Shown here: positions 38,380-57,578 of the stretch, in pieces | Numbering within the stretch: the first letter of the stretch is position 1 | Layout: the number at the start of each line of letters is the position of its first letter | Virus record (IMG/VR): IMGVR_UViG_3300000313_000054 | Origin: a virus | Strand: one strand, 5' to 3' | Length of the DNA: 64,000 nucleotides | The notes under the pieces: generated by a model | Database searches by the model: none | Seen by the model: the letters and a program-made list of their open reading frames with translations, nothing else | Told to the model about the DNA's origin: nothing | Made by a program: the position numbers and the translations under genes

Positions 38380-38409
38380 TTGACTTTAATATGTATGTAT
38401 TGGTATAAT
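38380..38409 (+). promoter_or_regulatory. sigma-70 promoter TTGACT-18-TGgTATAAT; ATG at 38416 is 6 nt after -10
   Basis: -35 at 38380-38385, -10 at 38404-38409. Confidence 0.65.
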
Positions 38410-38415
38410 GAGAAT

Positions 38416-39972
38416 ATGAGAAGAAAAATAATTATCTCAGTTTGCTTGATTTCATATGTACTATTTATTACTTTACCAGCTGTACTCCATCGATATATTT
38501 ATCCCAATTCAGGTGATGACTCTGCCACAATCCTTAATATGTTCCGTTTTGACAATTTAATGCAGTTAAATCATTATGGATATGCAATAATTGGATACCC
38601 TCTTAATTGGTTAGCATCTGTGACATCTATTCCACTGGCCTCTTTATATTTATGGTTCAGTTATATTGCATTGGTTGGAGTAGGACTTAGTTTATTCTTC
38701 ATTTTAACTAAGTTAGTTAACTATAAAGCTGGTTTACTTGCGTTAGTTATTCCGACTTTGCTATCGAGAGGTTTTATAACCCTATTTGACTACGGTATGA
38801 TCTTTAATATTATTAGTTCTGGCATTCTATTGCCGTTCTTGATTTATTTTTCAATTAAATATGTAATCACAAATCGAAAAGTCTACCTAATCTCATCTAT
38901 ATCACTCACATTTATATACAGTATCTTTCATACGATGGGTATTTATCTAGCTCCAATATGTTTAGTCATGTTAATGTTCTATATAATTTATAAAAGAAAA
39001 GAAGTTAATAATTCAATTATCCTATTTCTCGATGTGGTGATTATAACTAATTTGGTAGGAACAATATTAAGAATTTATCCATCAAGATTTTCTATTACTA
39101 ATACTGATATTCCAATTAGCCAGAGTTTAACAAACTTTTACGTGTACGTTTTGGTCTTGAGCCTTGTGATACTTTTATTCCTATATATTTTGCGTAAGAA
39201 TAGAATATTTAAGTGGCTATCATATAGTCTCATAGTCTTAATGGGTTGTACTTTAATCTGTGAATATCTTGTAATGAAACCAGAGGCGAGTTGGATAGTC
39301 AATGGTGTTACATCTGGTTCTGGTAAGATTATGCCGATTGATTGGATGTTAGAAATTATAAATCCAGTAACATTAATTGCGTTGTTTTTATCTATACTTT
39401 TAATATGGGGTTTAATTAAGGATTTAAAAACAGAAACTAAGTTATTAATTTTTGTTTATGTATTATTATCTTTAATGTTAGCAACCTTCGCTTTATTAGG
39501 TTTGACTCCTACACCAGATAGAATGACATTTGATTTAGCGAATATGATAGGTGTATTAACAGCTATTTGCGTTGGTTTAATGTGGAATTATAAGAAGTTA
39601 CATATAATAGTGGTAGCTATAGTGGTGATAAGTTTTTATTCAACATCTTTTGGATGGTGTAGTTATCGAAACGCTGTAAAGCCAGTCGATGTTGAGACTA
39701 TGGAATATTTAGATACATTGAACTATAGTTCTTATACTTGTTCTCCGACTATAAATCCAGACATCTACGATCAGTTTACTAAAGCGAAGTATAATAAAAA
39801 TTCTGATGTGCTTATAGTCCGTAATTTAGCTATGACCCCACAGAGCGACCCTACTAGTTTAGCTTATAATCCTCATGGTCAAACATCAACCGAAGGGTTT
39901 AAACTTGATAAAGAATTTAGTGAAACAATGCGTGGTATAGAGATTAAAATAGATATTTATATTAAGGAATAA
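38416..39972 (+). CDS. large polytopic membrane protein (about 12 or more TM); Wzy/GT-C-like polymerase or glycosyltransferase candidate; leaderless start
   Basis: the ORF track extends the start upstream of the promoter; in-frame ATGAGAAGAAAA at the predicted +1. Confidence 0.55.
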   Translation: MRRKIIISVCLISYVLFITLPAVLHRYIYPNSGDDSATILNMFRFDNLMQLNHYGYAIIGYPLNWLASVTSIPLASLYLWFSYIALVGVGLSLFFILTKLVNYKAGLLALVIPTLLSRGFITLFDYGMIFNIISSGILLPFLIYFSIKYVITNRKVYLISSISLTFIYSIFHTMGIYLAPICLVMLMFYIIYKRKEVNNSIILFLDVVIITNLVGTILRIYPSRFSITNTDIPISQSLTNFYVYVLVLSLVILLFLYILRKNRIFKWLSYSLIVLMGCTLICEYLVMKPEASWIVNGVTSGSGKIMPIDWMLEIINPVTLIALFLSILLIWGLIKDLKTETKLLIFVYVLLSLMLATFALLGLTPTPDRMTFDLANMIGVLTAICVGLMWNYKKLHIIVVAIVVISFYSTSFGWCSYRNAVKPVDVETMEYLDTLNYSSYTCSPTINPDIYDQFTKAKYNKNSDVLIVRNLAMTPQSDPTSLAYNPHGQTSTEGFKLDKEFSETMRGIEIKIDIYIKE

Positions 39973-39974
39973 AA

Positions 39975-40730
39975 ATGAAGGTAGTTATATTTTGTGGTGG
40001 TCGTGGTTTTAGACTTCAGGAGGAAACTGAGTATCGTCCTAAACCTTTGGTATCAATTGGTGGCATACCTATCTTAGTCCATATAATGAATATCTATTCC
40101 CGTTATGGAATTAATGAATTTATTCTATGTTTGGGTTATAAAGGTCAGATGATAAAAGACTACTTTATTAATTATGACACAATGACAAACGATGTCACAG
40201 TTGTATTAGGGGATGAACATAAAATTATAGTGGAAAGGAAACAAGAAAAACTTAATTCAGTAGTTACAATGGTGGATACTGGATTAGAAACAATGACAAG
40301 TGAACGCCTAACCAGAATTAAAAAATATATTGGAAATGAAACATTTATGCTAACTTATGGCGATGGTGTTTCAGATATAAATATTCAAGACTTACTTCTA
40401 TTTCACAAAGCACATGGAAAGATTGCAACAGTTACAGCAGTCCACCCGACTTCTAAGTATGGCGTAATTAAATCAGAACATGGTGAAGTCACAAAGTTCT
40501 CAGAAAAACCAGTACAAAGTGACAGAATTAGTGCTGGTTTTTTTGTATTTGAGCCGGAAGTTTTTAATTATCTAGATGACGGAATGTTAGAACAAACCCC
40601 ATTACATAAGTTGTCAGAAAATAAACAATTAAGAGCTTTTGAGCATAATGGATGTTTTCATTCTATGGATACTTATAGTGATTTTAATGAATTAAATAAA
40701 ATGTGGAATGAGGGGAAAGCTAAATGGTAA
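39975..40730 (+). CDS. rfbF: glucose-1-phosphate cytidylyltransferase
   Basis: [34 protein letters not shown]... is the RfbF/DdhA signature. Confidence 0.8.
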
Positions 40731-41698
40731 ATTGGCAGGACAGACCTGTTTTAGTTACAGGTGCTACAGGATTATTAGGTGGTTGGCTTACTAAAAGGTT
40801 AATAGATTTAAATGCGGGTGTTGTTTGTTTAGTAAGAGATTGGAACCCGAATAGTTTATTTGAAATGAACAGATTAGAGGAATCAGTATGTGTAGTTAAT
40901 GGCGATATTACAGACCAGAGATTATTAGAAAGAATATTAGGTGAATATGAAATTGAGATGGTATTCCATTTAGCTGCCCAAACTATTGTAGGGATTGCAA
41001 ATCGTAATCCAGCATCAACATTTGAATCCAATATTAAAGGTACGTGGTCATTATTAGAAGCGTGTAGAAGAAGTCCTAAAGTTCAGTCAATTGTAGTCGC
41101 ATCAACGGATAAAAGTTATCGTGAGGATTGTAAGTTACCTTATAAAGAAGATATGGCATTAGGTGGTAGTTATCCTTACGATGTTTCAAAATCTTGTGCC
41201 GATTTAATTGCACAATCCTACGGTAAAACTTATCAACTTCCCGTGGCTATTACACGATGTGGAAACTTATACGGTGGTGGTGATTTGAATTGGAATAGAG
41301 TGATACCTGGAACAATCAGATCAGTTATTCGTGGTGAGCAACCAGTAATTAGATCGAATGGAAAGTTTATCAGAGATTATGTTTACGTTCAAGATGCTGT
41401 AAACGCATATATAAAATTATCAGAGTGTGTCTCAGAAAACAATGTTTTAAATGGTCAGGCGTTTAATTTTTCCAATGATACCCCAATGAACGTATTGCAA
41501 ATAGTGGATAGTGTATTAAATTTAATGCAAAGTAAACTGAAACTTATTGTTCAAAATAAAGCGAGTAACGAGATATTAGAACAAAGTTTATCATCAGAAA
41601 AAGCATTTAATCTATTGGGTTGGAAGTCTGAGTATACATTAGAACAAGGTTTGGATGAAACTATTAAGTGGTATAAGGGGTATTTCAGTGAAAGATAG
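40724..41698 (+). CDS. rfbG: CDP-glucose 4,6-dehydratase (SDR)
   Basis: [19 protein letters not shown] Rossmann motif, YDVSK catalytic pair. Confidence 0.7.
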
Positions 41699-42896
41699 AA
41701 TAAGAGTTCCTTATGCTGGTAGAGTCTACGATGATAACGAAATTAATAATTTAATTGATGCTTCTAAAAAGTTCTGGTTAACAAGTGGAGAATATTCTGG
41801 AAAATTTAAGAAAGGATTATCAGAATTTACAGGTGTTAAATACGTTGTCTTAACTAATTCAGGTTCGTCAGCTAATCTCTTAGCAATTTCAAGTCTTAAA
41901 GCAATTGGTAAATTAAAAGATGGTGATGAAGTAATCACTACAGCCTGTGGTTTCCCAACTACCCTAAATCCTATTATTCAGAATAATTTAGTTCCAGTAT
42001 TTGTAGACGTAGACGATACGTTAAATATCGATGTTACTAAACTTGAAGCGGCATTATCGCCTAAAGTTAAAGCACTAATGATACCTCATACTCTAGGTAA
42101 CCCCTTTGATATTTCAAGAGTAATGTCTTTCGCAATAAGACATGAAATCGAGATTATAGCAGATTGTTGTGATGCGTTGGGGTCACAGTATCGAAATATG
42201 TCAGTAGAGCAATGTGCAACTATTTCTACGCACTCGTTCTACCCTGCTCATGGAATTACGTGCGGTCAGGGTGGAGCAGTTTTAACTAATTCTAAAGAGC
42301 TATATCGTGTAATTAATTCTATGAATACTTGGGGGCGTGACTGCACCTGTAATTCAGGACAAGATAATAAATGTGGTAAAAGATTTGAAGGACAATATGG
42401 TGATTTACCATTTGGTTACGACCATAAATATGTTTATTCATACATAGGTTATAATTTTGAAATGACTGATTTGCAGTCGGCAATTGGTGTCGCTCAATTA
42501 GAAAAGTTGCCCGATTTCATAAGACTTAGAAAGAGTAATTATAAGTATTTGTATAACAATCTTAAAAAGTTTGGCGTTGTATTTAAGTTTCCCACAGTCA
42601 ATCAAGGAGCAGACCCTTGTTGGTTCTCATTTCCAATAACAATGAGAAATACAACAGCATTAAGAAGGAATGATGTTGTTAAATATTTAGAAGAAAACAG
42701 TATTCAGACACGCTTGTTATTTGGTGGAAATTTATTAAGACAACCTGCTTATAAAAATATTCAACATAGGGTAGTTGGAGAATTAACAAATACAGATTAC
42801 ATTATGAATAATTCGTTTTTCATTGGGGTCTATCCTGGTTTGGATAAAAAGAAATTAGACTACATGATTGAGGCGATTGAGGACTTGGTGGGATGA
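41655..42896 (+). CDS. rfbH: DegT/DnrJ family PMP enzyme with C-x-C-x7-C Fe-S motif: CDP-4-keto-6-deoxyglucose 3-dehydrase (E1)-like
   Basis: aminotransferase fold motifs plus [11 protein letters not shown], the [2Fe-2S] motif characteristic of E1; likely start is the GTG at 41688. Confidence 0.6.
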
Positions 42897-43831
42897 ACTT
42901 ACTATCTAAAGATTTAAAATATATGGCTGATAATGTGGATTGGGTTGAATTAAACAATTCACGTATTTTAATAACAGGTGCATCAGGGTTTGTTGGAAGT
43001 TGGATGGTAGACAGTATTCTCTATGCTAAAGATAAATTTAAGTTAGATATTGAAGTTTGTGTTTTAACCAGAGACTTTAATAAATTATTGGATATGTATG
43101 GTAATAAGGTTACTATTTATAGTGGGGATGTAAGAGATGTTTCATTAGGTGGGTTTGATTATATTATCCATTTAGCTTCACATGAAGGTCATAGATTAAT
43201 GGTTGATAATCCGATAGAAATGTACGATATCATAGCGAATGGTGCTTGGAATATGTTAAGACTTGCATGCAAATGTAGTTGTAAAAAAATCCTTTATATG
43301 AGTTCTGGAGTAGTAACTAAAGAAGAAATTAATCCTTATTCACAGGGTAAAAAGATGGGTGAATATCTTTGTAATCTCTATCACGAACAATACGGGTTGG
43401 ATATAAAAATAGCCAGAGGATTTGATTTCATTGGTGGTAGAATACCATTAGACAAACACTTTGCAATAGGCAATTTTATAAACGATATATTAAATGATAG
43501 GCCAGTAGACATAAAGAGTGATGGACTTGCCGTAAGGTCGTATCTTTATATGGCAGATGTTGTAGTTTGGTTGTGGACTATATTATTAAAAGGGCAATCA
43601 TGTGTTCCATATAACGTTGGTTCTCATAAGGCATATACAATAGGTAGTGTGGCGAGAATGGTAGCGGATTTTGGTAGGTATAATAAAGGTATAAATTGTC
43701 ACTCATTAAGTAGCGGAGTAAACGATAGTTATTATCCTGAAATTAATAACGTAAAAGACTTGGGGTTGATGCAAATGGTAGGATTAAACGATGCTATTAA
43801 AATGACATTAGATTGGTATAAAAACTTTTAA
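42893..43831 (+). CDS. NAD-dependent sugar epimerase/reductase (SDR)
   Basis: ITGASGFVGSW, YSQGK. Confidence 0.6.
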   Translation: MNLLSKDLKYMADNVDWVELNNSRILITGASGFVGSWMVDSILYAKDKFKLDIEVCVLTRDFNKLLDMYGNKVTIYSGDVRDVSLGGFDYIIHLASHEGHRLMVDNPIEMYDIIANGAWNMLRLACKCSCKKILYMSSGVVTKEEINPYSQGKKMGEYLCNLYHEQYGLDIKIARGFDFIGGRIPLDKHFAIGNFINDILNDRPVDIKSDGLAVRSYLYMADVVVWLWTILLKGQSCVPYNVGSHKAYTIGSVARMVADFGRYNKGINCHSLSSGVNDSYYPEINNVKDLGLMQMVGLNDAIKMTLDWYKNF

Positions 43832-43885
43832 TAAGTGTTGGTTAATGGTATAATTAAGTATGTAGTAAGGATTGGATTTATATAA

Positions 43886-45379
43886 ATGAGACTAAATGAA
43901 GTAATGCCATTATTTATACTCGAAATGGCTAATTCCCACTCAGGTAATTTGGAACATGGTTTAAAAATAATTAACGAAATGCGTAAAGCAACTCAAAACT
44001 TTAATTTCAAATTAGCTATAAAGTTTCAGTACAGGGACATAGACTCATTCATCCATCCAGATTTTAAAGGTGATTATTCGTTTAAATATATAAAAAGGTT
44101 TTCAGAAACACGACTAAAAGAATCTGATTTATTGACTTTAAAAACTGAAGCTCAAAGGTTAGGTTTCATCACGATGTGTACTCCATTTGATGAAAACTCA
44201 GTGGACTTAGTTGAAAAGCATAATTACGATATCATAAAGATCGCCTCATGTTCATTTACCGACTGGCCTCTATTAGAAAGAATTATAAAGACAGATAAAC
44301 CAATAATTGCTTCAACAGCAGGTATTGATATGAAAGATATTGAGAGTTTTGTTTCCTTTATGGAACATCGGAATAAAGACTTTGCATTGTTACATTGTGT
44401 AGCGCAGTATCCAACACCTGATAAATATTTATCGTTGGGTAGAATTAAAATTCTCAAAGACAAATTCCCTGAAATACCGATTGGTTATTCAACACACGAA
44501 AATCCAGATAACTATGATTCTATTAAAGTTGCTATCGGTCAAGGTGCTACAATATTTGAGAAACATGTAGCTATACATACCGATGAGATAATGCCTAATG
44601 CGTATTCTGCGATACCAGAACAAGTAGGAAAGTGGTTACAGTCTGCTTTACACGCTTACGAAATGTTGGAAGTTTCAGAACCAAAAGAGAACGAATTAAA
44701 AGAGTTGAAAGCCTTACAACGTGGTGCGTATTGTAAGCGTAAAATTAAAGTAGGTGAACCTGTAAAATTAGAAGATGTATTCTTTGCTATACCAACAGTT
44801 GAAGGGCAATATACAGCCAACGATTTTTCAAAATATGTAGAATTTAAGACTAAAATTGATATTCCAGAAAAATACGCATTACTTAAAGATGATATCCAAA
44901 AAATAGATAAAAGAAATGGAGTATCCGTTATCGTTCATAAGGTTAATGACTTTATTAAACAATCTGGTTTGTCTATCCCATCTAAGGTCGATATAGAAGT
45001 TTCACATCACTACGGAATGGAATTTTTTGATTTGTATGGTATGACTATTTTTACAATTATTAATGAGGAGTACTGTAAGAAATTATTAGTTTTATTGCCT
45101 AATCAACAACATCCTACTCAGTACCATAAAAAGAAAACAGAAACATTCCATATATTAGCAGGTGAAGTATTTATTACTTTAAACGGATGTAAACAGAAAT
45201 ACGTAAAAGATGATATTATCACAGTTAATATTGGTGTAAAACATTTTATGGAAACATTAACTGGTGTAGTGATTGAGGAAATATCAAGTACTCATTACAA
45301 AGATGACTCTTTTTATACAGATGAAAAGATAAACTCTAATCCAAATAGAAAAACAAAATTAACATATTGGTTGGAATAA
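43886..45379 (+). CDS. NeuB/PseI-like sugar-acid synthase (PEP condensing) with SAF domain and an extra C-terminal cupin-like domain
   Basis: N-terminal FILEMANSHSGNLEHGLKII pattern, SAF-like RKIKVGEPVKLEDVF, C-terminal 150-aa extension. Confidence 0.5.
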   Translation: MRLNEVMPLFILEMANSHSGNLEHGLKIINEMRKATQNFNFKLAIKFQYRDIDSFIHPDFKGDYSFKYIKRFSETRLKESDLLTLKTEAQRLGFITMCTPFDENSVDLVEKHNYDIIKIASCSFTDWPLLERIIKTDKPIIASTAGIDMKDIESFVSFMEHRNKDFALLHCVAQYPTPDKYLSLGRIKILKDKFPEIPIGYSTHENPDNYDSIKVAIGQGATIFEKHVAIHTDEIMPNAYSAIPEQVGKWLQSALHAYEMLEVSEPKENELKELKALQRGAYCKRKIKVGEPVKLEDVFFAIPTVEGQYTANDFSKYVEFKTKIDIPEKYALLKDDIQKIDKRNGVSVIVHKVNDFIKQSGLSIPSKVDIEVSHHYGMEFFDLYGMTIFTIINEEYCKKLLVLLPNQQHPTQYHKKKTETFHILAGEVFITLNGCKQKYVKDDIITVNIGVKHFMETLTGVVIEEISSTHYKDDSFYTDEKINSNPNRKTKLTYWLE

Positions 45380-45381
45380 AA

Positions 45382-45681
45382 ATGATATATGGTATTGATA
45401 TGGATGGAGTAATTTGTAAAACTAATGGGACTGATTATCAACATAGTGTACCAGTTAGTGACGTAATCGACAAAATAAATTCATTATATCACAAAGGCGA
45501 TAAGATAATTATTTATACAGCAAGAGGAACCAAGTCTGGATTAGATTTAAGACAACTAACGCAGAGCCAATTAAAAGCGTGGGACGTTAAGTACCATGAA
45601 TTGATATTCGGGAAGCCAGTCTTTGATATTTATGTTGGTGATGAAGCAATCAATATAATAAATTGGATGGAGAGTAAATGA
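45382..45681 (+). CDS. small HAD-superfamily phosphatase
   Basis: MIYGIDMDGVI begins with the DxDGV motif I. Confidence 0.5.
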   Translation: MIYGIDMDGVICKTNGTDYQHSVPVSDVIDKINSLYHKGDKIIIYTARGTKSGLDLRQLTQSQLKAWDVKYHELIFGKPVFDIYVGDEAINIINWMESK

Positions 45682-46733
45682 TAATACAGCAACAAGAAGA
45701 AATCTTAAAACGTAATTATGTTAAAGAAATGAAACCGTATGTTTACAGGAAAATGATGAAGTTTCCAGAAAAAGTAGCTCGTGGTGAAAGCGTTGCGATA
45801 ATCCAATTCCAGTATGATTATAAATGTAATTTCAGGTGTGTTCATTGTTCGATTAAACGATTTCAAAATAAAAAAGATGTTCGTAAAATGTCTATTAATG
45901 ATGTTAAAAACTTATCAAAACAGGCAGATGAATTGGGACTTGCAAGGTTCGTTATTACAGGTGGAGAACCACTAATTTTTAAAGACTTTGACCAATTAGT
46001 GAGTGCTATAGACCCACATAAATTTTATATTAATTGTGATACTAATGGTTGGTTTTTAGATAGACTGAAAGTAAAACATTTAAAGTCCATTGGAGTAGAT
46101 AGAATACAATTAAGTATTGATAGCCTTGATAGAAAAGAGCATGATGATTTTAGAATGGCAGAAGGTTCACATGAAAGAGCTATGAAAGCTGTTGACTTTT
46201 GTTTGCAAGAAGGTATGAACATTTTTATTCAAACCGTAGTTTCTAAACAAAGATTATATACTCAAGAATTTGTTGAGTTTATAAAATATTTTAACAAAAA
46301 AAATGTCGGCGTATTTGTTTCATTTGCAAAACCAGTAGGAAGTTGGCAGGGTAATTTTGACGTATTAATAAACGATAATGACCTAATGTATTTTGAGAAT
46401 GCTTTGCAGAGTAGATATAAAGTATTTTCTCATTTAACACCATCCTATGGTAGTAAAGGTGGTTGCGTAGCATCTACAAATATACTATCAATTAATGAGA
46501 CAGGTGACGTACTTCCATGTATTTATTTTCCTGTATCAATAGGTAATATCTTTGATGAATCATTAAAAGATATACTCGAAAGGGCAGTTAGATTAAAACC
46601 TTTTAAGACTGACATTTGCCCAATGGCAGTTAAGAGCGACTTTATTGAGAAATACCTTGTGAAAACATATAACAAGGACTTACCAGTAGATTATAGAGAA
46701 ATATTTAGTGAGGAAGATTTTATTAATGGGTAA
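45678..46733 (+). CDS. radical SAM enzyme with C-terminal Cys-rich (SPASM/twitch-like) region
   Basis: CNFRCVHC CxxxCxxC motif; later GGCVASTN...CIYFP cysteines. Confidence 0.65.
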   Translation: MIIQQQEEILKRNYVKEMKPYVYRKMMKFPEKVARGESVAIIQFQYDYKCNFRCVHCSIKRFQNKKDVRKMSINDVKNLSKQADELGLARFVITGGEPLIFKDFDQLVSAIDPHKFYINCDTNGWFLDRLKVKHLKSIGVDRIQLSIDSLDRKEHDDFRMAEGSHERAMKAVDFCLQEGMNIFIQTVVSKQRLYTQEFVEFIKYFNKKNVGVFVSFAKPVGSWQGNFDVLINDNDLMYFENALQSRYKVFSHLTPSYGSKGGCVASTNILSINETGDVLPCIYFPVSIGNIFDESLKDILERAVRLKPFKTDICPMAVKSDFIEKYLVKTYNKDLPVDYREIFSEEDFING

Positions 46734-47745
46734 TAAAGCTACAGATGTAAGTGGAACAGCACCAGGTGGACAACGTATACGATTGGTAGACTCTTTGCCG
46801 TTAAAAACACCTTACCTTATTGAGATATTCCCTAGTTATCTTTGTAATTTTAAATGTAAGTATTGTATACATTCGATACCATTAAAAGAACGTGGTTACA
46901 TATCAGATAAGATACACATGGACTTTGTAATGTATAAAAGATGTATTGATGACATTAGTAAGTTCCCTGAAAAATTAAAAGTTTTAAGATTTGCAGGAAT
47001 GGGAGAACCTTTACTACATCCAGATATTGTGGGGATGGTTGCGTATGCAAAATATAAAAACATAGCCGATAAAATAGAGATATTAACTAATGGCTCATTA
47101 TTAACTCATAAGTTATCTGATGCGTTAATTAAAGCAGGTTTAACACGACTATATGTCTCCTTGCAAGGTTTATCAAGTGAACGATATCTCGAAGTTAGTG
47201 GAATAAAATTGGACTTTGATAAGTTTGTTGACAATATTAGGTATTATTATGAATCTAAAGGTGACTTAAAAATTCACATAAAAATTATTGACTACACATT
47301 GAAGGATGATAAAGAAAAGGCTCAGTTTTACCAAATATTTAGTGGCATTTGTGATACTATAGGAATAGAATTGGCAAGTCCGATCTATCCGTATGTTGAT
47401 TATAATAAAGTGCTAGAGAAAAATAATGATACTAAAACACAGTTTGGATTATGTTTGAATAATATTAAGACTTGTCCACAACCATTTTTCAGGTTACATA
47501 TAATCCCAGACTTTAATGTTATTCCATGTTACTCTATGGAATATCCTGAAATAATTGGAAACTGTGCGAATGATTCAATCGTTGATATTTGGAAAGGTGG
47601 TAATTTAAAAAAGTTTAGATTAGGTATGTTAAAAGAGGGCGTTTGTTTTAATAAGATTTGTAATAAATGTAAAATTATTAAATGTAGAATATTTCAAGAG
47701 GACATTCTGGATAACGATGTTGAGAGATTAAAGGGGTTATATTAA
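46726..47745 (+). CDS. second radical SAM enzyme with C-terminal Cys-rich region
   Basis: CNFKCKYC; start placed at ATGGGTAA overlapping the upstream stop. Confidence 0.65.
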   Translation: MGNKATDVSGTAPGGQRIRLVDSLPLKTPYLIEIFPSYLCNFKCKYCIHSIPLKERGYISDKIHMDFVMYKRCIDDISKFPEKLKVLRFAGMGEPLLHPDIVGMVAYAKYKNIADKIEILTNGSLLTHKLSDALIKAGLTRLYVSLQGLSSERYLEVSGIKLDFDKFVDNIRYYYESKGDLKIHIKIIDYTLKDDKEKAQFYQIFSGICDTIGIELASPIYPYVDYNKVLEKNNDTKTQFGLCLNNIKTCPQPFFRLHIIPDFNVIPCYSMEYPEIIGNCANDSIVDIWKGGNLKKFRLGMLKEGVCFNKICNKCKIIKCRIFQEDILDNDVERLKGLY

Positions 47746-47746
47746 A

Positions 47747-49402
47747 TTGAGATTATCAGATTTTGTCTTTAAATATTTAAAAGAGTATGGTGTTAATCAC
47801 GTATTTACATTAGTGGGTGGTGGCTCAATGTATCTTGACGATTCATTAGGGCATTCAGGAATACCATTTACTTGTAACCTGCATGAACAAGCATGTGCTA
47901 TATCTGCAATAGCCTATGCAGAATATAATAATAAATTAGGAGTATGTCTTGTTACAACTGCACCAGGTGGAACGAATACTATTACAGGTGTAGCAGGTGC
48001 ATGGTTAGATTCAGTGCCACTACTTGTTATCTCAGGACAAGTTAAACGTGCAGATTTAAAAAGTGGGAAGTTAAGACAACGTGGATTCCAAGAATTAGAC
48101 GTTGTTAAAATAGCACATTCGATTACTAAATACGCTGTTATGGTTAAAGAACCAACAGAAATAAAATATCATTTAGATAGGGCAATAAGTTTAGCAACAC
48201 ATGGTAGGAAAGCACCAGTTTGGTTGGATATACCATTAGATGTCCAACTAAGCGAAGTAGATGAATCTAAATTAAAAGGATTTACTGGTGACATAGACAA
48301 TAAATTAACTAATCATGTTGTTCAACATAAAGTTATAGGGACAATAAATTATTTAAACTACGCAGAGAAACCAGTTATCCTAGTCGGTAACGGGTGTCGT
48401 TCTAGTATTGATAAACTAATTGAGTTAGTTCAAGGTTTGAACATACCAATATTAACTACATGGAAAGCTATGGATTTGTTTGATAACAATGATTCGTTAT
48501 ATTGTGGTAGACCTGGAATGGTTGGTCAACAAGGTGCTAATATTATTCAGAACGAATGTGATTTACTGATATCTATTGGAGCAAGATTAGATTTGGGACA
48601 AACGGGATATGATGTTAAAAGTTTTGCACCAAAAGCAAAGAAGATAGTAGTTGATTTAGACTCAGCAGAAATAGGAAAGATAGATAGTATTAAAGTTCCA
48701 ATTTGTTGTGATGCAGAATTATTTATTGAGGAAATGCTAACACAAAAACACAGTATCAAGATTAGAGATAATCAATGGTTGCTTAGTTGTAGATTATTAG
48801 CATGTAAAAACATATTAGTCAATAATAGTCCATACGAAAGTGTTGATACTTATAATTTAGTAGATGTTATCGCTAATAATATGAACGAGTCGGATGTGTT
48901 AGTTCCGGCAAGTTCAGGACAAGCAGCAGAAATAACTATGCAGAACTTTAGAGTTAAAAATGGACAGCGTATACTTAATTTTCCAGCATTAGGGTCAATG
49001 GGGTTTGGTATTTGTTCTTCCATAGGCGCATGTTTGGCAAGTAGTAAAAAGAGAACTATATGTATTGAGGGTGATGGTTCTTTCGCTATGAATACTCAAG
49101 AGTTGGAGACTATACATAGGTTGCATTTACCGATTAAAATATTTGTTTTAAACAACTATGGGTATCGTAGTTTGCGGTCTACTCAAGACAGATATTTCAA
49201 TGGATTTCATGTAGGTAGTTCCTTAGATAGTGGACTAACTTTACCCAATATTAGAGGTATTGCCGAGGCGTATTCGATAGATTATCAAAGAATAGATAAT
49301 GAATTTAGATTAGATAATTGGATAAGAGAATATCTTAGAGATGATAAGCCACGCATCATTGAAGTTAAAACAAACTATAATCAGGAAACAATAAAATGTT
49401 AA
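47747..49402 (+). CDS. thiamine-diphosphate-dependent enzyme (acetolactate-synthase/YerE-like)
   Basis: TTG start; IEGDGSFAMNTQELETI TPP-binding motif; 3-domain size. Confidence 0.65.
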   Translation: MRLSDFVFKYLKEYGVNHVFTLVGGGSMYLDDSLGHSGIPFTCNLHEQACAISAIAYAEYNNKLGVCLVTTAPGGTNTITGVAGAWLDSVPLLVISGQVKRADLKSGKLRQRGFQELDVVKIAHSITKYAVMVKEPTEIKYHLDRAISLATHGRKAPVWLDIPLDVQLSEVDESKLKGFTGDIDNKLTNHVVQHKVIGTINYLNYAEKPVILVGNGCRSSIDKLIELVQGLNIPILTTWKAMDLFDNNDSLYCGRPGMVGQQGANIIQNECDLLISIGARLDLGQTGYDVKSFAPKAKKIVVDLDSAEIGKIDSIKVPICCDAELFIEEMLTQKHSIKIRDNQWLLSCRLLACKNILVNNSPYESVDTYNLVDVIANNMNESDVLVPASSGQAAEITMQNFRVKNGQRILNFPALGSMGFGICSSIGACLASSKKRTICIEGDGSFAMNTQELETIHRLHLPIKIFVLNNYGYRSLRSTQDRYFNGFHVGSSLDSGLTLPNIRGIAEAYSIDYQRIDNEFRLDNWIREYLRDDKPRIIEVKTNYNQETIKC

Positions 49403-50379
49403 TATCAATTTGTATACCAACTTATAATAGAGCGTTATTATTAGATAGATCACTAGATTCTATTATTAAAGAGTTTTTAGATTATGATATTGAGATAATT
49501 ATATCAGATAATGCTTCATCAGATAATACTCAAGAAGTAGTTAGTGGGTATCAAGAGGAATATTCGTTTATTAAGTACTTTAGGAACGCTACCAACTTAG
49601 GATTAGATGAGAACGCCGTAATTTGCATAAAGAAGGCAATTGGTAAGTATGTCTTTATGTTCTCAGATGATGATATTTTATTACATGGATGTGCCAAAGA
49701 AATTATGCAAGTTATTAATGAGTTAAATCCTAACTTTATGTACTTGAATTACAAAAATTTTGGTGAAAAATCGAATGTAGTATTCCATTGGGACAAAGTG
49801 AAAGATTTAGAGAATATAATTTACAAGAATGGTTATAAAATGGTTCTTGAATTATATCCCACTCACTTTTCGGCAATGATTTATAAACGTGATGAGGTTT
49901 TAAAATATATATCTAGTTTAGAACAGTATAGAGATTGTGGATATGACAGAGGGTATGCCACTTCAACGTTAGCCCACCATATTTTGTTAGAGTCAAAACC
50001 ACCATTCGTTTTTATTGGTAGATGTTGTGCAGAAGTGGAGTTTCCAACTAATAAAAGAGATTATAATTTAATTCAAGTTTATTGCATTGATATAATCAAA
50101 CATTGCCAGAATCTTAGATGTAATAGACTTATAAATAGTTTTCAATTAAACCAAATAGTTAATAAACATGTTTTATGGCATACTACTAAACTTATTGTGT
50201 TAGCTAAGGGAACTAATAAGTTAACAAAGAATGAATGTAAGTTAATATGGGATCATTGTAATGGTTTTTGGTTATCATATTTCTGCGTATTTCCATCCTT
50301 GGTGCTACCCAATATTATTTTAAAATACATTCTTGGTATTGTTTTAAAGTATCGTAGATTAAGTGTTGAAAATGAATAA
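49396..50379 (+). CDS. family 2 glycosyltransferase
   Basis: ISICIPTYNR...IIISDNASSDNT. Confidence 0.65.
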   Translation: MLISICIPTYNRALLLDRSLDSIIKEFLDYDIEIIISDNASSDNTQEVVSGYQEEYSFIKYFRNATNLGLDENAVICIKKAIGKYVFMFSDDDILLHGCAKEIMQVINELNPNFMYLNYKNFGEKSNVVFHWDKVKDLENIIYKNGYKMVLELYPTHFSAMIYKRDEVLKYISSLEQYRDCGYDRGYATSTLAHHILLESKPPFVFIGRCCAEVEFPTNKRDYNLIQVYCIDIIKHCQNLRCNRLINSFQLNQIVNKHVLWHTTKLIVLAKGTNKLTKNECKLIWDHCNGFWLSYFCVFPSLVLPNIILKYILGIVLKYRRLSVENE

Positions 50380-50707
50380 AATTTTTAAACAGTACAACAT
50401 AAAAGGCGTTGGTTCCTCCATTTATACTCTGTATTTAGCAGCCCCAATGATAGGAATATTTATGTATATCATTAACGCCTTTACTTTTTATGTAGTAGCT
50501 AGAGATAAATATTTCCCTTGGATTAATCCCCCACTTTTTATATTATTTGCTTGTGTAGGTTTAATACTTTTACTATTTGTATTTTTTAAATTTGTCTTAC
50601 CATCGTATATATCATTTATTAATAGACAGTCTTATATCCATAATAATCCGATACAAATGGATTTAGCTAAGATAAAAAAGAAATTAGGGATAGAAGATGA
50701 TGAATAA
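50363..50707 (+). CDS. GtrA-like small membrane protein (polyprenol-sugar flippase component)
   Basis: 114 aa, 3-4 TM, immediately upstream of a GtrB-like gene. Confidence 0.45.
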   Translation: MLKMNKIFKQYNIKGVGSSIYTLYLAAPMIGIFMYIINAFTFYVVARDKYFPWINPPLFILFACVGLILLLFVFFKFVLPSYISFINRQSYIHNNPIQMDLAKIKKKLGIEDDE

Positions 50708-51638
50708 GAAGTTAATTTCAATAGTAACTCCTGTCTATAATGAATCAAGTAATATAAATTATATAAGACAAGATGTACTAAATGTAATGAGAGATTTAAA
50801 AAGTTACGAGCATGAGCATATATTTATAGACAATGCGTCTACAGATAATACTTTAATTCTTTTGAAAGAGTTGGCAAAAGAAGATAAACGAGTTAAGATT
50901 ATCAGGAATAATAGAAATTTTGGTCATATTCGTTCACCTTATTATGGTTTGTTACAAACCAAAGGGGATGTTGTAACAATTATCTCTGCCGATGGTCAAG
51001 ACCCTCCAAGCTTAATTAAGGATTTCGTAAAAGAATGGGAGCATGGTGCTAAAGTAGTTGTAGGGGTGAAAGTTAATAGCAAAGAGAATTTTTTAAGATT
51101 CAATTTACGTAAAGGTTATTATAAAATTCTAAGTAGACTTTCAGATGTTCCATTAGTTGAGAATTTTATGGGATTCGGTTTATATGATAGAATAGTAATT
51201 GATAAGTTAAAAGAGATTGATGACCCATATCCATATTTAAGGGGTTTGGTTTCTGAATTAGGATATAGTACTTCAAGGGTGGAATATTATCAGCCTAAAA
51301 GAAAAAATGGTAAGAGTCACAATAATTTTTACACTATATTTGACATAGCTTTATTAGGTATAACTAATAATACAAAAGTTCCATTAAGGGTTGCTACAAT
51401 ATTGGGCTTTTGTTTTTCAACAGTTAGTTTTATCGTAGGGATTGTTTATCTTATTTATAAGTTATTGAATTGGGGGAGTTTTGAAGTAGGTCTTGCACCA
51501 ATGGTTATAGGGATGTCATTTTTAGGTGGTATACAAATATTATTTTTAGGATTATTAGGTGAGTATATTGGGGCTATTTACACTCAAGTTTTACACAGAC
51601 CATTAGTTATCGAGAAAGAACGGATAAATTTTGATTAA
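50697..51638 (+). CDS. GtrB/ArnC/DPM1-like polyprenol-phosphate sugar transferase (GT2 with C-terminal TM pair)
   Basis: SIVTPVYNE, DNASTD, ADGQDPP (DxD), C-terminal TM helices and GEYIGAIY. Confidence 0.8.
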   Translation: MMNKKLISIVTPVYNESSNINYIRQDVLNVMRDLKSYEHEHIFIDNASTDNTLILLKELAKEDKRVKIIRNNRNFGHIRSPYYGLLQTKGDVVTIISADGQDPPSLIKDFVKEWEHGAKVVVGVKVNSKENFLRFNLRKGYYKILSRLSDVPLVENFMGFGLYDRIVIDKLKEIDDPYPYLRGLVSELGYSTSRVEYYQPKRKNGKSHNNFYTIFDIALLGITNNTKVPLRVATILGFCFSTVSFIVGIVYLIYKLLNWGSFEVGLAPMVIGMSFLGGIQILFLGLLGEYIGAIYTQVLHRPLVIEKERINFD

Positions 51639-51662
51639 AGAGATTTATATAAAGGAGCAAAA

Positions 51663-51833
51663 ATGAATAGAGACTTTCTAAATTTAATACCAGTTTCCAA
51701 CTCTGAATTGTGGTGTGCAACTTGCGAACATGTAGTGGATGATGAACTGAGAATTTGTAAGTGTGGAGAACCTAATAAGGTAAATTTCAAACAGTGGGTA
51801 AAAGAAAAGAAAGAGAAAGAGGGTAATAAATAA
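51663..51833 (+). CDS. small zinc-ribbon protein (56 aa)
   Basis: CATCEH...CKCGE; TAATG overlap with next gene. Confidence 0.45.
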   Translation: MNRDFLNLIPVSNSELWCATCEHVVDDELRICKCGEPNKVNFKQWVKEKKEKEGNK

Positions 51834-53521
51834 TGCTGAGTTTTCTTAAAAAATACTATCCCGAAATTCTAGTCTTTGGATTCATAGCAACGATTCTTTT
51901 TACTTGCTTGAGTCCTGATTATACATTTGTAAATAAAGGTGCGGATTCAATCGGTTACGCATATAGTGCCAAGTACCTCTACCCTTCCTTTCACACATCA
52001 CCACCTTTGTACCTTGTAGTTTCCCACTTCTTTTTAATGTTACCATTTGGAACTGAAGCATGGAGAATGGGGTTAGTCTCTACTCTTAGTACGCTTGGTG
52101 CTTGTGTCTTTATCTACTTGATTATTCGTAAACAATTAGCAGATAAAAAGTATTTTAGATGGCTTGCCTTGTTAGGTGTCTTAGTCTATGGTACAAGTGC
52201 AATAGTAATTTCACAAAGTGTTATTATCCAGACCTATCCGCTTACCTGTATGTTATCAATAGGTGCGTATTACTTTGCTGTAAAGCAACAATGGAAACGA
52301 ACTGCATTGATGTTGGGACTTGGAATGATAGTCCACTTACTAGCGTTCTTCATCGCTTTAATTATTATCTTAGCGTTCAAGGGATTCAGAAAGAACTGGA
52401 AGTGCTGGCTAATTATGGGTGTAATGATGATAGCTTACATCTACATTCCTTTAACAAACAGACCACCTTATATGTGGCAACCAGACCCATCAATTGTAAA
52501 CTCTAACTTACCACCGTTCTTAGTGAACATCTATTCCTTTGTAGTGGATACTGCCTCTACTGTAGGCTATTTAATCGGTAAACTTTCAATCTACGATACT
52601 CCCAAAAGAATCTTTGATATCATTGGGATAGTGGGTGTAAGTGTTGGTGTAGTTGCTATAATTCCTATCGTCTACTACTTCTTTAAGACAAAGTATTATA
52701 CCAATGTTTTATTCTGGTTAGCACTTACACCTAGTTTCATATTTCTAGTGAACATGGATGAAAATACTTACGATTATTGTATGCTGTCAATTCCCTTTTT
52801 GTCTGTAATTACTGCATTGGGAATGAGCAAATTAATCGAAAATAAAGGCAGACTAGCAATTAAATTTGCTTGTGCGACAGCAGTTGTGCTTATCGGGTTT
52901 GGTTCGTTTAATATGTGGTACTTCGATGTTGGACATCATAGTGATCCGAATATGACAGCCAAAAATCTTTACTACGTAGAGTTCGCAAAAATTCCAGATT
53001 ATGCTATTTTTATGCCGAACTATTGCTCAGAATGGGAAGCAATTTACAAATATAATAGAGATTTTAATAAGCACATCTATCCTATCTCTATAGACATTTT
53101 ACCTAGTCATCAATACCTTCAAACCTTGAAAGCAGATGGTATAAAATTTGTAGAAGGAACAAATGAGAATGTCAGTTTAGCATCCAGAGAAACAGCAGCT
53201 TCAATTATAGAATTAAATGATAATGTCTGGACTACAATCTCTACAGAACCAGAAACATTTGGCGTAACAGTTATTAAAGCCACAGACCCTAAAGTTGTAG
53301 ACATCTATGACGTTCAAAAAATGAAAGATATTGCAGAACATCCTACTGTAAAATGGATGCCATCCAATCCTTACCGCATCATCGACAGTTCTCTCTGCAT
53401 CCAAGAGTGGGGATACGTGTTGATGTCCAACAATAATATCTCACGCTTGATACTCTATTCTACTTTAGGATTTGCTGTAGTTTATATAGTTAGAAAGCAG
53501 TTTAAAAAGAATAAAAAATAG
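51833..53521 (+). CDS. GtrC-like / GT-C polytopic membrane glycosyltransferase (562 aa)
   Basis: about 11 TM helices followed by a large extracytoplasmic C-terminal domain; position after GtrA/GtrB-like pair. Confidence 0.5.
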   Translation: MLSFLKKYYPEILVFGFIATILFTCLSPDYTFVNKGADSIGYAYSAKYLYPSFHTSPPLYLVVSHFFLMLPFGTEAWRMGLVSTLSTLGACVFIYLIIRKQLADKKYFRWLALLGVLVYGTSAIVISQSVIIQTYPLTCMLSIGAYYFAVKQQWKRTALMLGLGMIVHLLAFFIALIIILAFKGFRKNWKCWLIMGVMMIAYIYIPLTNRPPYMWQPDPSIVNSNLPPFLVNIYSFVVDTASTVGYLIGKLSIYDTPKRIFDIIGIVGVSVGVVAIIPIVYYFFKTKYYTNVLFWLALTPSFIFLVNMDENTYDYCMLSIPFLSVITALGMSKLIENKGRLAIKFACATAVVLIGFGSFNMWYFDVGHHSDPNMTAKNLYYVEFAKIPDYAIFMPNYCSEWEAIYKYNRDFNKHIYPISIDILPSHQYLQTLKADGIKFVEGTNENVSLASRETAASIIELNDNVWTTISTEPETFGVTVIKATDPKVVDIYDVQKMKDIAEHPTVKWMPSNPYRIIDSSLCIQEWGYVLMSNNNISRLILYSTLGFAVVYIVRKQFKKNKK

Positions 53522-53792: not shown

Positions 53793-53836
53793 GGGGATTA
53801 TAGAGTAGCGATACTCCATAATCTCCTTTTTCTTTT
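53793..53836 (+). terminator. rho-independent terminator immediately after GGAACAACCGAAG (53781-53793)
   Basis: 15-bp imperfect stem GGGGATTATAGAGTA/TACTCCATAATCTCC then TTTTTCTTTT. Confidence 0.7.
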
Positions 53837-53852
53837 AAAAGAGGCAAGTGAA

Positions 53853-54113
53853 ATGTTTGGATACCTGAATAAATTTATTGGTAGAAAACCTAAAAAGCCA
53901 GTACAAAAAACTAGCAAAGTTAGAGAAGTAATCAATCAAGAAATGAGTGGTTACATTAAAAAAGAGGACTTGCCAAAATTTGTAGAAGAACTAAAAAAGG
54001 ATGAAAGAAAAAAACAAATTTGGAATAGTCTATCTCCTAAAATGAAACGCAAAATAGCCCAACGCATAGATGAAAAAAGGAGTCAAGATGCCAGAAAAAA
54101 AGAAAGGGACTAA
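53853..54113 (+). CDS. Lys-rich basic protein
   Basis: 86 aa. Confidence 0.5.
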   Translation: MFGYLNKFIGRKPKKPVQKTSKVREVINQEMSGYIKKEDLPKFVEELKKDERKKQIWNSLSPKMKRKIAQRIDEKRSQDARKKERD

Positions 54114-54186
54114 ACAGAAAGGCAACAAACTTTGGGAGAAAAACCGCAAGCGTATTAGACGTAATATGCTAAAGGCAAGGTATTAA
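54088..54186 (+). CDS. very basic 32-aa mini-ORF overlapping the 3' end of the previous gene in another frame
   Basis: RBS aaaaggag 7 nt upstream; MPEKKKGTKQKGNKLWEKNRKRIRRNMLKARY. Confidence 0.35.
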   Translation: MPEKKKGTKQKGNKLWEKNRKRIRRNMLKARY

Positions 54187-54189
54187 ACT

Positions 54190-54615
54190 ATGAATAGTTG
54201 TTGTTATGAAGTAGAAGTAGAAATCCTTACAGGTAGTCAACATTACGGAAATTATGTAGTAGAAAAGACAGTAGACAAAAGAAAGTGGGATAGAAAAGAC
54301 AGACATTATCGACTGAGTGAAGAACCTGCTTTTAAAGGTGTACAAATCAAAGAGAAGATTGTAAAAATGTTCAACTTCGAGAATTGTACCAGACAACAAG
54401 CTATTGAAAAGGGAAAGAAAAAAGGGATTGTAAAGACCTGTCGTAAAGTTGATGAGTACGAAGATTTACTTAGCATAGAACACATCCAATTAGACCAAGT
54501 TCCTTTAACAGTCTATGATAAGGGTAATCAATACGTTAGTCCTATCGCTATGTCAGAGATGGTTTGGCAAAAGAAAAAGAATATTAAAAAGCCTCTTGAC
54601 ACCAGCGAAAGTTAG
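54190..54615 (+). CDS. hypothetical protein
   Basis: 141 aa. Confidence 0.55.
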   Translation: MNSCCYEVEVEILTGSQHYGNYVVEKTVDKRKWDRKDRHYRLSEEPAFKGVQIKEKIVKMFNFENCTRQQAIEKGKKKGIVKTCRKVDEYEDLLSIEHIQLDQVPLTVYDKGNQYVSPIAMSEMVWQKKKNIKKPLDTSES

Positions 54616-54632
54616 TGATAAAATGTGTATAG

Positions 54633-54800
54633 ATGGTTATGAGAAAAGTGGAAACAAAAAATATCTGTGAATATTGCAAATCAGATCATGTAGTTTGTCA
54701 TGGCATAGTCAAGACGCAAAGAGAAGGTAAGCGTCAGCGTTACAAATGTCAAGAATGTGCTCATACTTTTTATATTGAAAATAAGGAGAACAAAGAATGA
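54633..54800 (+). CDS. InsA/IS1595-type zinc-ribbon mini-protein (55 aa), copy B
   Basis: CEYCKSDHVVCHG...RQRYKCQECAHTF. Confidence 0.55.
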   Translation: MVMRKVETKNICEYCKSDHVVCHGIVKTQREGKRQRYKCQECAHTFYIENKENKE

Positions 54801-55117
54801 ATAATGTAATCTTTTATGTCGTATTGGCTTGTATCATTGGGTTAGCAATTTGGGTAACAGTTGGTTCAAAAAAGAAACAGTGGTACATGGTGTACTTAGC
54901 GAACAACGAAGTTCTTTTACTTTGTAGAGACATCAATGAAAGATGGTGGAGAAGTAACGGAACTTACATGAGATTTAAAGATGAACTAGGTAATGAAGTT
55001 TCCTTTATTGCCAACGGACACTGGATACTCAAAATGGTTTCTATCCCTACAAATAAATTAGAAGATGCAAAGGCAGAGATCAAAAAAATTAATGCGAATG
55101 TAGCCAAGGAACAATAG
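54797..55117 (+). CDS. N-terminally anchored protein
   Basis: 106 aa. Confidence 0.5.
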   Translation: MNNVIFYVVLACIIGLAIWVTVGSKKKQWYMVYLANNEVLLLCRDINERWWRSNGTYMRFKDELGNEVSFIANGHWILKMVSIPTNKLEDAKAEIKKINANVAKEQ

Positions 55118-55118
55118 A

Positions 55119-55379
55119 ATGAAACGATACTTAGCATGGTTATATAGATGGCAGAAAGTTCCTTTGACTTTTAGTAAGTATGATAGAATTGTTACTTTTA
55201 TAATTATTCCAGTGATGATAGTAGTCGCTTTTATTGCACTTTATTTTCTATTAATTGGTGATGATAATAAGTCAATAGCATGTTCAGGAGTTGTTCTGGT
55301 ATTACTGTTTTCGCATGTTACAATGGCAGCGAATAATTTAGCGAAACAGATTAAGGAATTGAAGAACGTTGGCAAATAA
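55119..55379 (+). CDS. membrane protein
   Basis: 86 aa. Confidence 0.5.
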   Translation: MKRYLAWLYRWQKVPLTFSKYDRIVTFIIIPVMIVVAFIALYFLLIGDDNKSIACSGVVLVLLFSHVTMAANNLAKQIKELKNVGK

Positions 55380-57068: not shown

Positions 57069-57204
57069 TTTAAAACTTTTTTCGGTAATAGTTTAGAAAA
57101 CCGAGCATGGTAGCGATTGTGTCACACTAAATAAATTCGGCTAAGGTGTAATGATAGGTAGAACTCTCAAATAGTCCGAGCAATCGCATCCAATTAGGAG
57201 AGAA

Positions 57205-57468
57205 ATGAAAAAGATCAGTAATTATCAATGGTTGAATCCAGAACTTCATAGGAAGTCTAAAAAATATAATTACATCGTCTACGGTATCGCAATTGTTAGC
57301 ATGTTAGTTTTCTTTTTAGCACCAGGAAATGCAAAGATGATTAGTATGTTAATGCTCTTAGTAGCTGGTTATTTTATGGTTAAAAGTTGGGGTTTTCAGA
57401 GCAAAGACAAGGCGCTGAAACAGAACGAATGGGTTAGAAAACAACAGCAGAACTCATCTTCTAAGTAG
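57205..57468 (+). CDS. small membrane protein
   Basis: 87 aa. Confidence 0.5.
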   Translation: MKKISNYQWLNPELHRKSKKYNYIVYGIAIVSMLVFFLAPGNAKMISMLMLLVAGYFMVKSWGFQSKDKALKQNEWVRKQQQNSSSK

Positions 57469-57545: not shown

Positions 57546-57578
57546 ATTAAATAGAGTCGAGTAGCGGAACAACCGAAG

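Follow-up and report, generated by a model that had tools for sequence, protein, structure and literature searches.

The 64,000-nucleotide (nt) stretch of the virus record IMGVR_UViG_3300000313_000054 in IMG/VR (the window, whose numbering is used for all coordinates unless a locus is named) carries two genes for radical S-adenosylmethionine (rSAM) enzymes, rSAM1 and rSAM2, followed by a gene for a thiamine diphosphate (ThDP)-dependent enzyme; all three are on the plus strand, have strong domain matches, and lie directly downstream of the CDP-glucose pathway genes DdhA, DdhB, and DdhC. On balance, we lean toward the reading that these genes belong to an rSAM-containing variant of the YerE-type pathway, through which an acyl-branched deoxysugar would be synthesized and delivered to the cell surface. 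The solid parts of this model are the family assignments and the gene linkage; its substrates, the order of its steps, and the reactions of the rSAM enzymes are what we infer. The initial annotation of this DNA located the three genes correctly and read them as acting together. They do not stand alone, being part, and probably the core, of a cluster of 14 plus-strand genes (38380-53521), in which a NeuB-cupin fusion and a small HAD-type phosphatase, both overlooked at the time, are adjacent to them.

The ThDP enzyme contains all three thiamine pyrophosphate domains, with E values of about 1e-30 each. Its proposed TTG start is borne out, as there is an in-frame stop at 47729-47731, a pair of residues, S4 and D5, nearly invariant (at least 90%) across the homologs, and no ATG, GTG, or TTG other than the TTG at 47747 in the interval between this stop and this pair. 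The best match in the PDB is JanthE (8rph, E 8.6e-85), followed by 5ahk, and a profile of 15 ThDP enzymes from the conserved cassette described below scores JanthE at 572 bits, 5ahk at 403 bits, and entries for acetohydroxyacid synthase (AHAS) at 355-370 bits. The AHAS model TIGR00118 gives 356.7 bits against a cutoff of 538.35, and no gene for an AHAS small subunit is found in the cluster. The enzyme thus appears to fall in the YerE/JanthE clade and not among the acetolactate synthases, a call based on profile scores against JanthE, 5ahk, and AHAS. With these YerE-like carboligases as closest solved relatives, the earlier proposal of a C-C branching enzyme is supported.

Yersiniose A is made via YerE and YerF by ThDP-dependent branching of CDP-4-keto-3,6-dideoxyglucose, with pyruvate used by YerE (PMC9306805). 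The "unifying scheme" of Steitz et al. 2022 also covers erwiniose, caryophyllose, and gastriose along with ErwE, MMAR_2332, and MyGE as enzymes: The ThDP enzyme joins an alpha-keto acid supplied by an aldolase to CDP-4-keto-3,6-dideoxyglucose, with reduction of the product as the next step (PMC9306805). JanthE has been described as a YerE-like carboligase that accepts ketones and takes a wide variety of alpha-keto acids as donors (PMC12188165); it is an enzyme of biocatalysis, and its physiological substrates are reported as unidentified. Its genomic context in Janthinobacterium sp. HH01 (L095, 6805-14724) comprises DdhA, DdhB, DdhC, JanthE, a short-chain dehydrogenase/reductase (SDR), an acetaldehyde dehydrogenase, and an aldolase of the HMGL/DmpG type, which we assign to the erwiniose-type layout of the published scheme. 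This gene cluster suggests 4-hydroxy-2-oxovalerate and CDP-4-keto-3,6-dideoxyglucose as the natural substrates of JanthE, a hint at the role of the enzyme in its own genome.

The window shares with the YerE and JanthE systems DdhABC, an AHAS-like ThDP carboligase, an SDR, and glycosyltransferases; a keto-acid-making enzyme in the cluster would be a further common feature, if the NeuB-cupin and HAD proteins take this functional slot. It differs in this putative donor maker, which would replace the class II pyruvate aldolase and acetaldehyde dehydrogenase; no class II pyruvate aldolase is found in the window, and NeuB-cupin would also give a 2-keto-3-deoxy acid, an analogy of function only. It further differs in one or two added rSAM enzymes, none of which are reported in the described clusters, and in its carriers, which among the 80 loci listed are mostly uncultured and belong largely to lineages known as anaerobes. 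The proposal that the pathway lies outside those described therefore holds in part: We found nothing in the open-access literature tying radical SAM chemistry to YerE, caryophyllose, or branched dideoxysugars, whereas ThDP-dependent branching of CDP-4-keto-3,6-dideoxyglucose is, given the published scheme, an already described pathway.

The sugar-pathway context had been proposed earlier and is confirmed by family models, which identify DdhA (slightly below its cutoff, 296.3 vs. 300.25 bits), DdhB (226 bits, below the cutoff of 278), and DdhC/RfbH. The DdhC sequence includes [11 protein letters not shown] and is 48% identical to the DdhC adjoining JanthE. The genes for CDP-4-keto-3,6-dideoxyglucose are thus present, E3 excepted, and this DdhABC product, already suspected as the substrate, is a likely one.

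The proteins of the window were set against 80 genome loci, and the open reading frames (ORFs) of 82 loci were all clustered; co-occurrence was counted, as raw numbers, in those 48 loci where rSAM1 has at least 8 kb to either side. Sugar-pathway neighbors were present in all 48 of these loci. NeuB-cupin occurs in 45 of them and the ThDP enzyme in 43, followed by a Gmm-like NUDIX protein (33), DdhC and rSAM2 (32 each), a HAD-like protein of ~197 amino acids (aa; 25), and a glycosyltransferase of family 2 (GT2) resembling GtrB (16). By these counts, rSAM1 goes with NeuB-cupin and the ThDP enzyme more often than with the Ddh genes. In L044 and L045, neither NeuB-cupin nor the ThDP enzyme lies within 10 kb. 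The recurrent gene order is DdhA-DdhB-DdhC-NeuBcupin-HAD-ThDP ... rSAM1-(NUDIX)-rSAM2-SDR, and the carriers among the 80 listed loci include Patescibacteria, Omnitrophota, Lentisphaerae, Desulfobacterota, Lachnospiraceae, Planctomycetes, Bacteroidales, and archaea. In the cultured Butyrivibrio sp. INlla16 (L077, 351-20768), NeuB-cupin, ThDP enzyme, rSAM1, and rSAM2 are encoded next to heptose genes, HldE-like (kinase/cytidylyltransferase-like) and GmhA-like (SIS), rather than next to DdhABC, which suggests that the NeuB-cupin/ThDP/rSAM set is a branching module that is portable and may be paired with one nucleotide sugar or another. Three further radical-SAM genes and an aldo-keto reductase that has a ferredoxin domain come after the set in this genome. 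The cassette also recurs on elements classed as viral: Seven IMG/VR contigs (L086-L092, 35-154 kb) carry rSAM1-family and ThDP genes, six of them together with NeuB-cupin. Among GenBank phages, no true member of the rSAM1 family was found, the best match having 25% identity.

The NeuB part of the fusion protein matches PDB 3g8r as its nearest structure (E 3.9e-111, residues 7-341), and the cupin part is of the D-lyxose/D-mannose isomerase type, matching the D-lyxose isomerase 2y0o (E 8e-5) with invariant His and Glu residues of the metal-binding kind. The protein stays below the equivalog cutoffs for NeuB (126 vs. 400) and PseI (120 vs. 340) and is accordingly assigned to the NeuB/PseI superfamily only; we propose it as the maker of an alpha-keto-acid (ulosonic acid) donor. 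The small HAD protein has copies 43% identical to that of the window in L089 and L092. In 37 loci, its position is held by the ~197-aa protein, which has a DxD motif (DVDDV) and no Pfam or NCBIfam match, and which we read from motif and position as a candidate HAD-like protein. The placement of NeuB-cupin and HAD directly upstream of the rSAM genes, together with the almost universal co-occurrence of this putative donor maker, argues against the two-carbon branch envisaged originally: The branch is probably longer.

A two-carbon branch would be retained if the cluster encoded two independent sugar pathways, in which the ThDP enzyme makes a yersiniose-like branch from pyruvate, NeuB-cupin and HAD make a separate ulosonic acid resembling KDN or KDO, and the rSAM enzymes tailor one of the two. 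YerE does use pyruvate (PMC9306805), two GT2 and two GT-C-like genes could serve two sugars, and the products of NeuB-type enzymes are normally transferred as such. We nevertheless consider this rather unlikely: The window cluster lacks a CMP-ulosonic-acid synthetase of the NeuA/KdsB type, as do the named recurrent families of the 82 loci (the unnamed ones being annotated only in part), NeuB-cupin and the ThDP enzyme co-occur in 43-45 of the 48 loci and are usually separated by just the HAD gene, and the JanthE cluster contains a keto-acid-forming aldolase.

The NUDIX family, whose best match is GDP-mannose mannosyl hydrolase (E 1.9e-10) and whose gene follows rSAM1 directly in 17 loci, speaks for another order of events. 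The NUDIX protein, the HAD protein, or both would free a CDP-dideoxyhexose, maybe modified by rSAM1, from its nucleotide, NeuB-cupin would extend it with phosphoenolpyruvate (PEP) to a nine-carbon keto acid, and the ThDP enzyme would then act in decarboxylation or ligation. Such chain extension is the logic on which the legionaminic and pseudaminic acid pathways run, and MoaA and viperin, to which rSAM1 is structurally closest, have nucleotides as substrates. A NUDIX gene, however, is missing from the window, the final product would carry no nucleotide as a handle although the conserved GtrB-type transferase requires a nucleoside diphosphate sugar, and the closest characterized relative of the ThDP enzyme acylates ketones, with the gene directly after DdhABC. 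We regard this nonulosonic-acid-like scheme as unlikely.

For rSAM1 (Radical_SAM E 2.9e-24, SPASM E 4.5e-7), 1968 database matches were obtained, the best 120 of which share 59-65% identity and bear generic names only, and a scan with one genome per species recovered the family in 251 species genomes. Its invariant cysteines are C50/C54/C57 (CX3CX2C) and, beyond these, C263, C281, and C314 only; this speaks for one auxiliary cluster, whose iron site may be open and able to bind substrate. MoaA is the best PDB match of the family profile (E 4.5e-21) and the first Foldseek match of the structure model (mean pLDDT 73), ahead of SuiB, PqqE, anSME, viperin-like enzymes, and BlsE, with TM-scores of ~0.5. 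As in rSAM1, only three cysteines are available for a C-terminal cluster in MoaA, the GTP 3',8-cyclase. The rSAM1 spacing of C-X17-C-X32-C is, however, twitch-like and not that of MoaA, and the context is always sugar biosynthesis and never molybdopterin. Taken together, rSAM1 is MoaA/viperin-like and belongs to a highly conserved family without a name. The rSAM1 genes of Lachnospiraceae seemed to contain a 500-bp insertion, which was an artefact in which the match of the adjacent rSAM2 had been joined to that of rSAM1.

The second enzyme, rSAM2 (Radical_SAM E 9e-17, SPASM E 3.3e-8), lies in an ORF spanning 46708-47745, and the ATG at 46726, giving 339 aa, is almost certainly where its translation begins, since a GAGG ribosome-binding site, the N-termini of homologs, and the public gene call agree on it. 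It has 1301 database matches at 50-64% identity. Among 15 diverse sequences, C40/C44/C47 and C250, C268, C312, and C315 are invariant, and C209 and C280 nearly so, which corresponds to the twitch feature of a CX3CX2C motif and a four-cysteine site for a single auxiliary cluster in a truncated SPASM domain. BtrN is the first match both by profile (E 5e-18, twitch domain included) and by fold, and HMMER aligns the twitch region with BtrN residues 178-241; with the single sequence, SpeY, BtrN, and DesII score best, all of which act on carbohydrates. We thus assign rSAM2, on its motifs and profile matches, to the BtrN-type twitch enzymes, as a member of a second conserved, unnamed family. It shares with BtrN and SpeY, twitch dehydrogenases of aminoglycoside and spectinomycin biosynthesis, the cysteine pattern and the setting of carbohydrate biosynthesis, and differs from them in identity (~20%), in length (339 aa vs. 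250-270 in the BtrN chains, ~70-90 residues longer), in the extra near-invariant C209 and C280, and in its putative substrate, which would be either a nucleotide sugar or else a long side chain, and not an aminocyclitol.

The two rSAM proteins had been described as a paralogous pair, which they are not in any close sense: With 20% identity (E 9e-6) they belong to different, separately conserved families. The extra C-terminal cysteines noted for both are present, although they differ, with three invariant in rSAM1 and four invariant plus two near-invariant in rSAM2. Neither protein has a B12 domain, and with MoaA/viperin and BtrN/SpeY as nearest relatives of rSAM1 and rSAM2, respectively, the analogies once drawn with GenK and DesII are weak.

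The distribution of rSAM2 mirrors that of a TylC3-type C-methyltransferase: Of the 48 loci, 31 encode only rSAM2, 16 only the methyltransferase, one both, and none neither, a near-perfect exclusivity (Fisher p 7.5e-12, with phylogeny ignored). The two genes also share the same slot, as the order is rSAM1-rSAM2-ThDP in the window and in its syntenic relative L094, and rSAM1-methyltransferase-ThDP in the other syntenic relative, L093 (methyltransferase at 11065-12195).

Pfam SPASM matches in both rSAM proteins, weak sub-threshold NCBIfam matches to peptide maturases, and the presence of SuiB and SkfB among the structural neighbors could indicate maturases of ribosomally synthesized and post-translationally modified peptides (RiPPs). 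No maturase model of NCBIfam comes near its cutoff, though, and by profile the two proteins match MoaA and BtrN best. The genes from 45367 to 50379 overlap or lie 1 nt apart, so that a precursor gene would not fit in; the seven-cysteine SPASM motif that goes with two auxiliary clusters is found in neither protein; and sugar genes are the neighbors across dozens of phyla. We reject the RiPP reading, whose probability we regard as negligible, on this tight packing, the wrong cysteine motifs, and the conserved sugar context; the preference for sugar over peptide chemistry in the initial annotation thus stands.

Still very improbable is a set of unrelated auxiliary metabolic genes, with an acetolactate synthase for amino acids and two cofactor maturases of MoaA-, heme-, or tungsten-cofactor-like kind. 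The top NCBIfam names do read this way, with AHAS for the ThDP enzyme and AhbD, MoaA, and tungsten-cofactor maturase for the rSAM proteins. All of these fall far short of their curated cutoffs (357 vs. 538 for AHAS, 96 vs. 284 bits for the MoaA model TIGR02666 on rSAM1, 88 vs. 380 for the tungsten-cofactor maturase), and no NCBIfam model reaches its cutoff for either rSAM protein. With the AHAS small subunit missing, the linkage to sugar genes conserved, and the ThDP enzyme clustering with JanthE, we reject both the AHAS and the cofactor-maturase assignments.

In the branched-sugar pathway that we favor, DdhA, DdhB, and DdhC would produce CDP-4-keto-3,6-dideoxyglucose, with the E3 reductase coming from the host. 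The cupin domain would convert a ketose to an aldose, which the NeuB domain would join with PEP to a 3-deoxy-2-ulosonic (alpha-keto) acid, the HAD enzyme taking off phosphate in the course of donor synthesis. The ThDP enzyme would then decarboxylate this keto acid and attach the acyl unit at the sugar's C4 ketone, both substrates being putative, and the SDR would reduce the ketone so formed. For rSAM2, the oxidation of a secondary alcohol or the start of a dehydration, on the sugar or the side chain, seems most likely, and rSAM1 might add a further radical step, perhaps a deoxygenation, epimerization, or C-C cyclization, on either the nucleotide-linked sugar or the keto-acid precursor. Finally, the GtrB-like GT2 would load the sugar on polyprenyl phosphate, the small membrane protein would flip it, and the GT-C-like proteins would attach it to a surface glycan. 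As the cluster rides on a virus-like element, its likely purpose is the remodeling of the host surface.

It should be noted that several points weigh against this pathway. The window encodes no E3 (DdhD) reductase, although DdhC (E1) needs one, which would thus have to be supplied by the host. The ThDP enzyme and JanthE share no more than 30% identity, and at 551 aa the window enzyme has ~50 C-terminal residues fewer than JanthE (610) and the cassette norm (~600). The SDR shows no significant similarity to that adjoining JanthE (E 0.009). Ulosonic acids are mostly rings in solution, so that their use as ThDP donors is hypothetical. The model neither explains the Gmm-like NUDIX protein, so frequent elsewhere and absent from the window, nor predicts the exclusivity of rSAM2 and the methyltransferase. 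The co-occurrence counts are uncorrected for shared ancestry, the locus flanks are limited to 10 kb, and the members of the cassette are known from sequence alone. As side observations on two of these proteins, the C-terminal part absent from the window ThDP enzyme covers the region of a functionally important lysine of JanthE, K567, and rSAM1 was considered as a stand-in for E3 and rejected, its SAM-binding motifs being kept and 16 of the 48 rSAM1 loci having no DdhC nearby.

The cassette is widespread; its putative ThDP branching step is known chemistry, and its radical steps are not. Branching of sugars by ThDP enzymes has been known from a few aerobic pathogens; a related pathway, with another donor-making enzyme and one or two rSAM steps, is now indicated for no fewer than 251 species-level genomes, which come from many phyla of bacteria and archaea, most of them without cultured members. 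Two large unnamed radical-SAM families thereby gain a biosynthetic setting and candidate substrates, a surface sugar of a new kind is predicted, and cultured or named carriers exist in Butyrivibrio sp. INlla16 and a Victivallis vadensis genome. We entertain only tentatively, as possible and rather doubtful, the wider claim that rSAM1 and rSAM2 represent two new functional classes that, with NeuB-type and YerE-type enzymes, build an unseen higher-carbon branched sugar, possibly deoxygenated or carbocyclic, on many uncultured anaerobes (among them candidate-phyla bacteria and archaea), and that the whole pathway is virus-borne to re-dress the host.

The downstream end of the cluster (table 1) resembles the Gtr modules (GtrA/GtrB/GtrC) of phages in having a polyprenyl-phosphate GT2 and a small and a large multi-pass membrane protein in a row. 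Phage Gtr modules modify surface glycans, and their counterpart in the window is likewise carried on a mobile, virus-like element. Classical Gtr modules use UDP-glucose of the host. The window element differs in bringing an entire pathway for an exotic sugar, and the GtrA and GT-C roles in it are those of candidates; if the model is true, a mobile element with an entire pathway plus export would be an unusually elaborate case of host-surface remodeling. Homologs of the GtrB-like protein (44-58% identity) are found in 25 cassette loci. The small membrane protein of the window has no GtrA (PF04138) match in Pfam, and the slot is occupied by a PF04138 GtrA protein in L094. The large one has a GT87 match below the cutoff (E 9e-4), and a 560-aa membrane protein takes its slot in L094, after GT2 and GtrA genes. 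At the upstream edge of the cluster, the ORF of the first membrane protein spans 530 aa (525 aa in the public gene call) and has no Pfam, NCBIfam, or PHROG match; the equivalent slot holds a PMT_2 (GT-C) protein in L093 and an unannotated 521-aa protein in L094, and we regard the window protein as a candidate GT-C-type transferase.

Table 1. Genes of the sugar cluster and further features of the window
Feature	Coordinates	Strand	Characteristics
Multi-pass membrane protein, candidate GT-C-type transferase	38380..39972	+	Upstream cluster edge; very hydrophobic
DdhA/RfbF, glucose-1-phosphate cytidylyltransferase	39975..40730	+	TIGR02623 E 1.8e-88, 296.3 bits, full length
DdhB/RfbG-like CDP-glucose 4,6-dehydratase	40724..41698	+	TIGR02622 E 6.5e-67; Epimerase and GDP_Man_Dehyd domains
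DdhC/RfbH (E1), CDP-6-deoxy-4-keto-glucose 3-dehydrase	41655..42896	+	NF011936 E 2.5e-174, 580 bits, above cutoff of 423
Extended SDR, candidate side-chain/ring ketoreductase (putative YerF-like role)	42893..43831	+	Epimerase E 4.4e-28
NeuB-like PEP-dependent synthase with C-terminal cupin fusion	43886..45379	+	NeuB E 5.5e-41, Cupin_2 E 6.4e-7
Small HAD-type phosphatase, 99-104 aa	45367..45681	+	TIGR01689 capsule-biosynthesis phosphatase E 1.7e-7; DxDG motif MDGV
rSAM1, radical-SAM enzyme	45678..46733	+	351 aa, CNFRCVHC
rSAM2, BtrN-type twitch radical-SAM enzyme (putative)	46726..47745	+	339 aa, CNFKCKYC
YerE/JanthE-type ThDP-dependent carboligase (putative)	47747..49402	+	TTG start, 551 aa, three TPP domains
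GT2 glycosyltransferase, soluble type	49396..50379	+	Glycos_transf_2 E 2.9e-24
Small membrane protein, 111-114 aa, candidate GtrA-like flippase	50363..50707	+	Slot shared with GtrA of L094
GtrB/ArnC/PgfS-type polyprenyl-phosphate glycosyltransferase (second GT2)	50697..51638	+	Full-length PgfS E 7.8e-53, ArnC E 2.2e-31
Multi-pass membrane protein, 562 aa, candidate GT-C transferase	51833..53521	+	Weak GT87 match
NUMOD3/DUF559 homing-endonuclease-like ORF	9553-10263		
SPFH/Band7 protein, 609 aa	14567-16396		
HicB-like antitoxin	18103-18504		
2586-aa ORF	19132-26892		No match
1281-aa protein	58804-62649		DUF2341 domain

The window has ~32% G+C and nearly all of its ORFs on the plus strand; in the flanks of the cluster (1-38000 and 53800-64000), most ORFs are without a family match. 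The element is virus-like, and the searches for a phage identity were not decisive. No capsid, portal, or terminase was recognized in the window, and PHROG scans returned only the homing endonuclease, the HicB-like protein, and families of unknown function. ORFs of 2586, 861, and 502 aa had no match in Pfam, PHROGs, or deposited phages, including by tblastn against 50,697 phage records, and neither a megablast of the cluster nor an IMG/VR scan with the 861-aa ORF gave anything decisive on phage identity.

Three tRNA genes are encoded at 5585-6719, for Thr(TGT), Ser(TGA), and a 99-nt Ser(CGA), with the two Ser genes 4 nt apart. The element has two syntenic relatives, the loci L093 and L094 referred to above. 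In L093, an IS605-type TnpB gene lies ahead of the sugar cluster, and an inserted gene for a phage-type RNA ligase (PF09414) separates DdhB from DdhC (TnpB and RNA ligase at 1491-2633 and 4963-5946 of that locus).

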